Assembly (NCBI RefSeq): GCF_045037415.1 | Contig: NZ_CP173438.1 | DNA: 64,000 nt | Direction: 5' to 3' (one strand) | DNA from: Escherichia coli | GTDB lineage: Bacteria > Pseudomonadota > Gammaproteobacteria > Enterobacterales > Enterobacteriaceae | Shown: in pieces, positions 54,301 to 64,000 of the stretch | Numbering within the stretch: position 1 is the first letter of the stretch | Layout of the letters: every line of letters starts with the position of its first letter | Made by a program: the position numbers

Positions 54301-57300
54301 TGGCGAAAAACCCGTAATCATATCCAGTGAATCGTTAAACGGTATCCACACATCAGGCAGCGGCGGCACTATATTCGCACAGGGCTCTGCAGTCACTTCC
54401 GCTGCGGCTTCTGCGCGGTCTGCCGCCTTTTCAGCTCGTGTCGCTGCCGACAGAGCCTCATCCTTTTTCTGCCCGGCCTTTGTTGCGTCTGCTGCGGCCT
54501 CCCGCGCTTTTGTGGTGGCGACTCCGGCATTTTCAGCGGCTGACTCTGCATTACGGCGGGAAGCCTCTTCACTGTCTGCGGAGGCTTCTTCTGACGCACG
54601 GGCATTTGTCTCTGAACGTTCTGCCGCTGTTGCTGCGTTTTGTGCGGCTGTTTTTGAAGAAGCTGCCGCTTTCGCGCTGTTACCTGCATTCGTCTCTGAT
54701 GTTTTCGCCGCGTTCCTGGACGATGCCGCTGCTGTTTCTGATTTCTTTGCTGCCGCTGCGCTCTGAGAGGCGGCTTCAGCGTTGCGTGCCGCCTCTTCCA
54801 CCATCTTTTCAAAACGATACAGTGCCTCCGGACAAACATCATCTTCTGTTGCAGCGCCCAGAAAATCATTCAATGTCCCCGGCTTAGAATCCTCATACAC
54901 GGTGATGGTCCCGGCATGTGAAGGCGGAAAACCTTCAACCAGCAGGGCGACGCTGTACTGGCCATACTCAACATCCATGCTGTAACGTCCGGCTTCATCC
55001 GGATTTTCTGAGGCCACCGTGTTCACCACAACTGTGGTGCTGTTACGTTTTGCTTTGAGCTGAATGGTGCAGTTCTGTATCGGTTTTCCTGCACCGTCTT
55101 TCAGCACACCTGAAATCTGTACTGCCATATTCACTCCACAAATAAAAAAGGCACCATTTCTGGTGCCCGAATTTGGGTTTTAAAATTCAACTGATACTGA
55201 TGCCGGCTGTTGATTTCTTCATCACGACAACAAGAAGGTCGCTGATACTGGTCGTTGGCGTCCAGTTATTTGCACCATATGAAGAAACATTGAAAGTCAG
55301 GGTGACATGGCCGTGTCCGGCAGGCATATCAATGACTGATGAAAATACCCTGCTGACATCCGTCGCGGGTTGCTGAAAGATTTCCTGTCCGTTCTTCAGC
55401 ACCTGCAGCTTACAGGTTGAATACCAGTATGACTGTTGGTTGTTGCTGTTGAAGTTTTCATGCTTACCACCGCGAAACAGAACGGGGGGGACGACTATCT
55501 GACGGTCAAAAGCCTGGTCATCGTACACAGTGACCGTTATTGTACCGCTGGCATAACTGCCATTTCTCGGAAAGGCTTTTCCCACCGTTTTGACAATATC
55601 ACCTTCAATCTGGTTAGCTGACAGTTTTCCCAGAATCCGACAGTTCTGGTTAATCGTGACATTATTGAGCGTCCCGGAGTTCGCATTCACGTTACCGCTG
55701 ATATCCGCATTTCTCGCAGAAAGTCGACCATCAGGTGTCAGTGAAAACGTTGGGGGATTGCCACCGCTGGTAATGGTGGGAGCCGTCAGATATTTCAGGA
55801 ACACTTCGTTCATGAATATCTGATCGCCCTGCCCAACAAACATCGGCTTTGTATTGCCATTCGCAGGATTAATCATCGCAATCCTGTCCGCCGCCAGCAG
55901 CACCTGACTCTGCATACCGTCAGGGGTATTCTCAATACCGGCACCAATACCCGCGATATAAAGGCGTCCGTCCTGCATCTGCTGCAGCTTCACAGCCCAC
56001 ATGCTGTTCAGGTTATTATTTGTATCAACCTGAACCTTCTGTATCTGCTGGATCGCTGCACTCTGGTCTTCCAGTTTCTTATTGACGGTCTGCGTGATTT
56101 CATTGCTGACATCCGTAATGGACGTCCTGATTTCAGCCAGGTCAGGCGCAAGCTGACCGTTATCAATCTGCGTCCACAACTCCTGAGCCAGATGGGTTTT
56201 CCCTATCTCTCCTTTGAAAAAATCCAGATAGCCGGATGCATCATCACTCGGCTGGCCAACAGCCTCCACAAATGCCGATTTGCCAACGGTGTTCACACTG
56301 CGAATGTAAAAATAATAATCATGGCCCGGTTTGATATTGATACTGGCGGCTATCCAGTACAGCGCCGTACCAAGATAACGCGCGCTGGCTTCAACCTGCC
56401 TGATATCCGCAATCCGCTTTTCCGAGAACCAGAACTCAAACTGTACCGTCGGATCATAAACGGCAAGATGCGGCGTTGCGGTTATCTGAAAATAGCCCGG
56501 CGTCAGCTCAATCCGCGATGGCGCTGCCGGTGCGGCAATCCGGAACGATACCGACGCCGGATCCCCCTGCTGCCCCCACGCATTTACCGCCCGGACTGTC
56601 AGCCTGTAGTTCCCCAGCGCCAGTTGCCTGAAGCGGTATGTGGTTTCCGTCGTCCTGGCCGTGCTGACCAGCCGCTCACTGCCGTCATCCGCTGCCACGG
56701 TCAGGCGAAGCATAAAGCTCACCCCCTTCACCACCTTCGGTGTGTCCCATCGCGCCAGCACCTGATATTCCCCGCTGTCTGCGGTGACTTCTGCGGTCAG
56801 GTGCTGCACCGCGGGCGGCGTGACACCATTCACCGTGCCACTCTGTTCGCCGTCAAAGTGCGCCCCGTTATCCACGATGGTCTCTTTTTCCGGCACATGC
56901 TGCACGGCGGTGATGGCATACGTGCCGTCGTCGTTTTCACGGATACTCACGCAGCGGAACAGTCGCTGGCGCAGCGTCGGCAGCTTCAGCCCCCATACGC
57001 TGTATTCAGCAACACCGTCAGGAACACGGCTCACTTTCACCTTCACGCCGTCGGTGACGGACTGAACCTCCACGCTGACCGGATTGCCACTTCCGTCAAC
57101 CAGGCTTATCAGCGTGGTACCGGAGGATGGCAGCGTGATTTCACGGTCGAGCGTCAGCGTCCGGGTCTGGCTGTTCACCGCCAGCACACGACCACCGGTG
57201 CTGATACCGGCATAGTCATCATCGCAGATTTCAATGACATCCCCCGGTACATGGCGAAGCCCTTCAGCACCCACGCTGAAGTCCACGGTCTGCGTTTCCA

Positions 57301-63300: not shown

Positions 63301-64000
63301 TTCACCTGCCCCCCCTGTTGCAGCAGGATCAGCCACGGACTTTGCCCGCCTGCAAGCTGCGTGGCCACGTCGGTGAACTGTGCAGGCAGCATACGCATGG
63401 CGGCTTTATACTGCCCGACGGAAATCCCCGCTTTCTGTGCAGCCAGCGCCTGTCGGCTCAGCGACTGTTCAACGACTGCCGCTGTTTTTTTCGCATCACT
63501 TTCCGTACCGGAAAAATGACGCCTGACTCTGGCCATCTGCTCGTCAAATCTGGCCGCATCCAGACTCAAATCAACGACCAGATCGCCTACCGGTTCAGCC
63601 ATACCGGACTCCTCCTGCGATCCCTTCTGATACTGTCATCAGCATTACGTCATCCTCCGTCATGTCCGCCACATCCGGGGAAGCGGGGATAACTTCATTC
63701 CCGTCCGGGCCAAAGCGGACACCTCCGGCAAGCCCTGCCGCTTTCTGCATCAGCACATCATCTTCAGGCTCTTCGTCAGCCTCGCGCCGGTTCAGCAGAC
63801 TGAAATCCAGCGGATGCATATCCGGATCGCTGAAAAACAGGCTGAGCACGGTGTACGTCAGCCCGGAAAAGTGCATATCCAGCAGAACATCATGAAAATA
63901 ATGGGTACTGTAAAAGCGGTGCCAGTCGGCATACTCCGTGGATGACATCCCGGCAAGCATGGCACGCCAGTCGGGTCGCCCCATCTCACGCGCCAGTTTC

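Follow-up and report, generated by a model that had tools for sequence, protein, structure and literature searches.

The 64,000-nucleotide Escherichia coli sequence analyzed here (the window; assembly GCF_045037415.1, contig NZ_CP173438.1) closes at its right edge with a block of phage tail genes, 55187–64000, which we identify as the distal end of a late operon; the operon belongs to a lambdoid prophage, integrated at icd, that is a natural hybrid of phages lambda and 21. We put the probability of this reading at roughly 0.9. Coordinates are positions within the window unless a proxy genome is named. An earlier note on this DNA had described a mosaic prophage in which a lambda-like tail module adjoins an unrelated accessory region. 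The mosaic character stands, but the border does not lie between tail genes and cargo: the true junction of lambda and non-lambda DNA falls within gene J, at about 56173, and the sit "cargo" is part of a phage 21-type right arm. This correction is the useful outcome of the analysis.

A listing of open reading frames (ORFs) shows 55187–64000 filled by a run of minus-strand genes in lambda order: T (partial), H, M, L, K, I and J. The H-M-L-K-I-J module lies on a single strand with lambda-like gene sizes, and the Pfam families of all six lambda proteins are matched far above their curated cut-offs. Internal stops, a concern the earlier note had raised for H and J, are absent from the frames of T, H, M, L, K, I, J, the side tail fibre gene stf and the two small ORFs that follow it; these identities and intact frames are read directly in the window. 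A single blastn alignment of 7,861 bp joins 56173–64000 to lambda 18002–10144 at 96.1% identity; the likeness of M, L, K, I and the N-terminus of J to lambda, which the earlier note had recognized from the sequence alone, holds at the DNA level over 7.9 kb.

Phage 21 is the best phage match for the tail block. It aligns to 54119–64000 over about 9.9 kb (phage 21 20243–10332, 95.2% identity) and, collinearly, to 46839–53218 over 6,380 bp (phage 21 27561–21183, 98.8% identity). The latter stretch takes in the 3' end of stf, two small ORFs (orf92 and orf97), sitDCBA, the gene that the earlier note called an orphan, the icd fragment (icd') and the edge of attP. Between J and the attachment site lie stf, two small ORFs, sitDCBA and a hypothetical gene, which together make up the b region of phage 21. 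The tip of the side fibre, approximately 53200–54300, is the sole part between the attachment site and the right edge of the window that matches neither phage. Because the window is collinear with phage 21 on both sides of this tip, the layout is the standard right arm of a known lambdoid phage.

The change from lambda-type to phage 21-type DNA can be located within J. J, the central tail fibre and host-specificity protein, is complete in the window (55187–58669, minus strand; 1160 amino acids (aa) against 1132 in lambda), carries six gpJ Pfam domains including Ig_GpJ_C, and matches chain J of PDB entry 8IYK. Its N-terminus had been taken as lambda-like, and it is (97–99% over residues 1–800), though the whole of J, and not its N-terminus alone, lies within the window; over residues 801–1160 identity to lambda J is 36–73%. 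By comparison, identity to phage 21 J is 98.2% overall, and residues 987–1160 are identical. The lambda alignment stops at 56173, at about J codon 832. In a 200-nt sliding comparison across approximately 56200–56170, lambda identity drops from 0.88 to 0.33 while phage 21 identity stays at 0.96–0.995. This defines a mosaic breakpoint at 56150–56200, with lambda-type DNA at higher coordinates and non-lambda, phage 21-type DNA at lower ones.

Because residues 987–1160 of J are identical to those of phage 21, the predicted receptor is LamB. LamB is the native receptor of phage 21, and the substitution I1025T adds OmpC (PMC11336670); position 1025 of the window's J is the ancestral isoleucine. The nearest non-lambda structure to the C-terminal 447 aa of J (55187–56530) is the chain named "A8 gpJ 713" in PDB entries 9WCA and 9WCB, whose last approximately 190 residues are far closer to the receptor-binding end of the window's J than those of lambda are.

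The junction with the host chromosome is likewise seen directly. An attachment-site repeat of 229 bp (46839–47067) consists of an icd 3' fragment (46904–47067, the last ~165 nt of icd) and 64 nt of downstream sequence, and the PGAP annotation marks a partial isocitrate dehydrogenase here. A second copy, 93% identical, lies beside int and the full icd at the other end of the prophage in a proxy genome described below. A three-way alignment shows the window copy flanked by host DNA on the left and phage 21-like DNA on the right; around the int-side copy the arrangement is reversed, the arm-type repeats of phage 21 lying on one flank and the coding sequence of icd on the opposite one. Marker patterns place the crossover point within the repeat. 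These data confirm the proposed integration at icd and show that the 3' end of the gene is duplicated where the prophage meets the host DNA. Phage 21 and e14 integrate in this mode, the phage supplying a replacement icd 3' end, and a note in the phage 21 record is consistent with it. Just outside the prophage, the host gene ycgX (DUF1398; 46160–46368) has 72% DNA identity to the lambda right-end ORF lambdap78 (47322–47527), which hints that an older phage once left a remnant here.

Beyond the right edge we relied on a near-identical genome, that of E. coli strain E41-1 (the proxy), which differs from the window at 5 of 64,000 positions (one in the last 23 kb and four in the first 41 kb). The earlier note had considered the intactness of the prophage past this edge undecidable. 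The proxy supplies an answer: its prophage is complete, ~48 kb long, with lambda-type heads and tails, and every module is present. The structural genes G, V, U, Z, FII, FI, E, D, C, B, W, A and Nu1 all have lambda gene lengths, and the proxy also carries Rz, a lambda-R-like endolysin, a holin, Q, nin genes, O-like and P replication genes, cro-like and cI-like regulators, kil, gam, bet and exo. Phage 21-type int and xis adjoin icd in the proxy, outside the window, with the lengths they have in phage 21 (1143 and 237 nt). The remainder of the prophage in the window's own genome is presumably as in these near-identical relatives, and it probably retains the ability to make virions. In K-12 this site is occupied by the cryptic remnant e14; we considered a remnant of that kind here and rejected it because the tail genes are all full length and the proxy has all modules.

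The proxy also bears on what kind of hybrid this is. Lambda 1–18002 aligns to it at 97%, whereas the phage 21 head genes align at only ~66%. The int/xis-red region, in contrast, aligns to phage 21 at 97.4% and reaches icd, and the right end is 99.7% phage 21. Since the heads (~66%), the immunity region (no match) and the lysis genes (a lambda-R-like endolysin in place of the pinholin/SAR-endolysin cassette) are unlike those of phage 21, the prophage is a hybrid and not phage 21 itself. Nor does it belong to the species Lambdavirus lambda, for which ~95% nucleotide identity over the full genome length is the criterion: the proxy matches lambda only in the left arm, part of O/P, the red region and R-Rz-bor, and its b region, att/int, immunity region and Q/holin have no lambda match. 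In this hybrid, judged from the proxy past the window edge, a lambda-type section runs from cos through J codon ~832. Of phage 21 type are the end of J and the beginning of stf, the b region including sitABCD, attP together with its copy of icd', int/xis and the red genes, and also the right end. Other lambdoid lineages supplied the tip of the side fibre, the immunity region and the morons of the nin region. It is a clean natural case of lambdoid module exchange, combining lambda structural genes with the integration system, b region and receptor-binding end of phage 21.

Several points weigh against this interpretation or its extensions. Everything past base 64000 is known from near-identical genomes alone; the use of LamB is predicted from sequence identity to phage 21; a search for induction data on the window's strain found none; RefSeq labels the stf N-terminus a pseudogene, though the frame is open; and several otherwise identical genomes carry insertion sequence (IS) elements somewhere in the 20-kb region searched. 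The IS elements fit a long-resident prophage, maybe decaying in some lineages.

Whether the prophage is still active can be argued both ways. It may be, and it may be spreading sitABCD (together with iss and a 4.3-kb inverse-autotransporter gene, if the window's own genome has them as the near-identical proxy does) among extraintestinal E. coli by way of LamB, with the side fibre and the two small ORFs possibly forming an unstudied fibre-assembly or host-range module; we advance this tentatively, at somewhat less than even odds. The part of it that concerns activity and the spread of sit has already been documented for sister phages. Because isolated phages are near-identical to it and collinear with it, this prophage type makes infectious particles, and by analogy the window's own copy may be infectious as well; sitABCD and iss in these lineages ride on a prophage that looks mobilisable.

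Less probable, and in our view doubtful, is a fixed and no longer inducible prophage, in effect a "pathogenicity island," whose tail genes persist only through recent ancestry while selection favours sitABCD and iss and not the phage functions. The literature does treat the locus as a pathogenicity island at icd, and its presence at the same site in 934 complete genomes suggests long vertical inheritance; the IS insertions in related strains, the PGAP pseudogene flag on stf and the 4.3-kb inverse-autotransporter moron in the proxy's nin region point the same way. Against fixation, the window's tail genes are all full length and free of stops, every structural gene of the proxy has its lambda length, and int and xis have those of phage 21. 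The prophage, at ~48 kb, is near the size of the 48.5-kb lambda genome and should be packageable, and plaque-forming phages of the PhiR47_2 and Lambda_ev087 type are 96–99.7% identical and collinear. Side tail fibres, moreover, are dispensable in laboratory lambda.

The remaining alternative, a lambda tail module joined at its end to unrelated, non-phage accessory DNA, is very improbable. In its favour, sitABCD and the "orphan" gene have no lambda homologue, the G+C content falls to 37–40% around 47000–49000 and the lambda alignment ends before the cargo. Against it, the lambda breakpoint lies within J, the DNA from the J C-terminus to the attachment site follows phage 21 collinearly at 98.8% (the fibre tip excepted), short patches of the lambda b region keep their order on either side of the "orphan" gene, that gene is itself a member of a family of phage proteins, and virion-DNA sequencing excludes a prophage-artefact origin of the phage 21 record (PMC9119081).

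The lambda/phage 21 hybrid that we favour was compared with its closest known relatives. Lambda itself (NC_001416) shares the T-H-M-L-K-I-J order, the gene sizes and the small overlaps. It differs in the b region, attachment site, integrase and immunity region; moreover, the window has no homologue of lom or tfa, its stf resembles lambda's only in the first ~245 aa (64%), and its I is 10 aa shorter in the middle. Phage 21 (OL657228; Feiss et al. 2022, PMC9119081), whose essential genes are syntenic with lambda and whose morons, including virulence loci, differ (PMC9119081), shares the integration at icd and the order J, stf, 92-aa ORF, 97-aa membrane ORF, sitDCBA, ~250-aa hypothetical gene, icd' pseudogene, attP and int. 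Unlike phage 21, the window has M and the 3' end of H in their lambda form (85–87% to phage 21); the two differ further in the side-fibre tip and, as judged from the proxy, in the immunity region, holin and nin region.

Isolated sit-carrying Lambdavirus phages are also close relatives (see Mathieu et al. 2020, PMC6969025): PhiR47_2 (PV340567), Lambda_ev087 (LR597644) and 1H12 (NC_049947) are 97.9–98.7% identical over 46839–64000, and collinearity between PhiR47_2 and the prophage of the proxy extends over 42.7 of ~48 kb. They differ in nin-region morons and in short patches in I and H, and PhiR47_2 has a toxin-antitoxin pair beside cI that is missing in the proxy. No paper came up in literature searches on the accession names of the PhiR and Lambda_ev phages, and PMC12315714 and PMC10089163 contain no description of these records. 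In the nin region of the proxy, beyond the window edge (proxy L001 40229–44494), lie the 4.3-kb inverse-autotransporter gene and an alpha/beta hydrolase gene, and PhiR47_2 has ren, an SMR pump and ybcK at the place of these two genes. The inverse-autotransporter gene is a large adhesin-like moron on a ~48-kb genome that should still be packageable.

The locus and the prophage type are already known and ordinary. The uropathogenic E. coli elements PAI-536-icd and PAI-EC14142-icd, ~46 kb in length, lie at icd and carry a Phi21-type integrase, sitABCD, iss and phage tail genes (PMC9686529). Only the label differs: that paper calls them pathogenicity islands, and the sequence is a complete lambdoid prophage. 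Of 5,426 complete E. coli genomes, 934 have at least 80% of 44000–64000 at a single place, and the 100% matches to the window include O25b:H4-ST131 strains. Nor is the cargo unusual, for classical phage 21 normally carries the iron/manganese transporter genes sit. The finding has little value as a discovery, since this sit/iss prophage at icd has already been published from uropathogenic and ST131 E. coli.

The individual tail genes, all on the minus strand, follow lambda closely. T, the tail assembly chaperone frame, is cut by the window edge (63595–64000): the 134 aa present are 100% identical to lambda T, and the full gene would end at 64029. The G/T frameshift region had been thought to be cut off by this edge, and indeed the slip site GGGAAAG lies 29–35 nt past it in E41-1, at window-equivalent positions 64029–64035; the PGAP annotation of that strain includes both T and G. 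H, the tape-measure protein, is intact (61041–63602; 853 aa, the length of lambda H, 99.1% identical; Pfam TMP_2 and Tape_meas_lam_C). The tail-tip proteins M (60715–61044; 109 aa; 99.1% to lambda M and 89.9% to phage 21 M; Pfam Phage_min_tail) and L (60017–60715; 232 aa; 99.6% to lambda L; Pfam Phage_tail_L, E=3e-101) come next, followed by K (59269–60012; 247 aa), a tail-tip protein with JAB and NlpC/P60 domains (Pfam Prok-JAB and NLPC_P60) that is closer to phage 21 K (96.0%) than to lambda K (90.8%). In lambda, the tape measure H of the tail initiator is held by G/GT, and J binds the receptor in the outer membrane through its C-terminal domain; both J and I are covered by solved lambda tail-tip structures (PDB 8IYK, 8IYL, 8K35 and 8XCG). 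By analogy with this biology, H would set tail length together with the G/GT chaperones, and J with I, L, K and M would form the conical tip that nucleates polymerisation of the V tube.

Gene I, encoding the tail-tip assembly protein (58730–59371; 213 aa against 223 in lambda; 85.9% to lambda I; Pfam Lambda_tail_I; match to PDB 8IYK chain I), starts within the end of K. The overlap of the two genes, which the earlier note had called characteristic, is 103 nt, exactly that of lambda (14773–14875). Relative to both lambda and phage 21, I has a hydrophobic middle shorter by 10 aa, and the corresponding DNA (58980–59200) is only ~65% identical to lambda and to phage 21 alike. Truncation of I at its N-terminus was considered as an explanation of the shorter length and rejected, since the start MAATHTLP is conserved and the shorter middle is common to other isolated phages, namely mEp332 (97.3%) and PhiR49_1 (95.9%).

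Between J and stf the gap is 58 nt, and its sole content is a terminator-like hairpin (55149–55168, minus strand) at a place equivalent to that of an annotated phage 21 terminator (19195–19222); lom, which lies between J and stf in lambda, is absent. A promoter and terminator scan of 52400–64000 gave counts not above shuffled expectation, and of its hits the J-stf hairpin alone has an annotated terminator as its counterpart in phage 21.

The side tail fibre gene stf (53107–55128, minus strand) is one continuous frame of 673 aa (Pfam phage_tail_N, E=3e-67; phrog_1419, E=2e-294). The N-terminal ~250 aa are of the phage 21/lambda type and keep the attachment domain; the C-terminal ~375 aa form a different, swapped tip domain with only 20–50% aa identity to the tip of phage 21. 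The C-terminal 407 aa are 99.8–100% identical to the fibres of the isolated phages PhiR47_2, Lambda_ev087 and 1H12. RefSeq (PGAP) splits 53107–55134 into a pseudogene "missing C-terminus" and a coding sequence (CDS) annotated "head spike fiber domain." We rejected the disruption this suggests, since the frame is open for 673 aa and the fibre is annotated as a single CDS in PhiR47_2. The split is probably an annotation artefact arising from the swapped C-terminal domain.

Downstream of stf, at the place that tfa occupies in lambda, is orf92 (52832–53110, minus strand), whose 92-aa product is 93.5% identical to phage 21 CPT_21_23 and falls in phrog_1361, a family of unknown function; it matches no Pfam family. 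Next to it, orf97 (52526–52819, minus strand) encodes a putative membrane protein of 97 aa (phrog_1443) that is 100% identical to phage 21 CPT_21_24, which is annotated with a signal sequence and two transmembrane segments.

The iron/manganese ABC transporter genes sitABCD (48985–52434, plus strand) are a prophage moron at the same place as in phage 21, and PGAP names all four in the near-identical genome. A predicted Fur-box-like site (48890–48908, plus strand), 77 nt upstream of sitA, matches GATAATGATAATCATTATC at 17 of 19 positions. Among lambda-type phages from infant-gut E. coli, 70% carry sitABCD, and a fur box lies upstream of sit in all such sit-carrying lambda phages (PMC6969025). 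Between the attachment site and sitA is the "orphan" gene of the earlier note (47528–48298, minus strand), which encodes a 256-aa protein of unknown function; a Pfam scan of the gene gave no family. The claim that sit and this gene are not lambda-like was correct in that neither has a lambda counterpart, but the name is misplaced: the gene corresponds to phage 21 CPT_21_31 and belongs to phrog_20520 (E=1e-177). It is flanked by two patches of intergenic lambda b-region DNA, 47318–47457 (lambda 27323–27464) and 48635–48799 (lambda 24184–24348), each ~80% identical and collinear with lambda. Since the two patches are collinear, a lambda-like backbone would run beneath the cargo, and they look like remnants of an older backbone of this kind that took in the cargo.

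Features elsewhere in the window are noted briefly. In the low-G+C stretch at the left end (1–3000; 32–40%), 42–1799 (minus strand) corresponds to a retron Ec67-family reverse transcriptase/endonuclease in the RefSeq annotation of a near-identical genome; the region looks like a small defence island next to dhaR, and an Rfam scan at 42–1799 found no matching RNA family. Between treA and ymgE, 10727–17153 is annotated in a near-identical genome with an iron ABC transporter (substrate-binding protein, FecCD permease and ATPase), an S-adenosylmethionine (SAM) methyltransferase, ModD and a TonB-dependent receptor, a cluster that would be a second metal-uptake locus in the window. The Rfam scan of the whole window gave no match in the prophage part; its sole match was the C0299 small RNA (31149–31227, minus strand; 112 bits), beside which a truncated hemolysin E (hlyE) remnant is annotated at 31349–31675.

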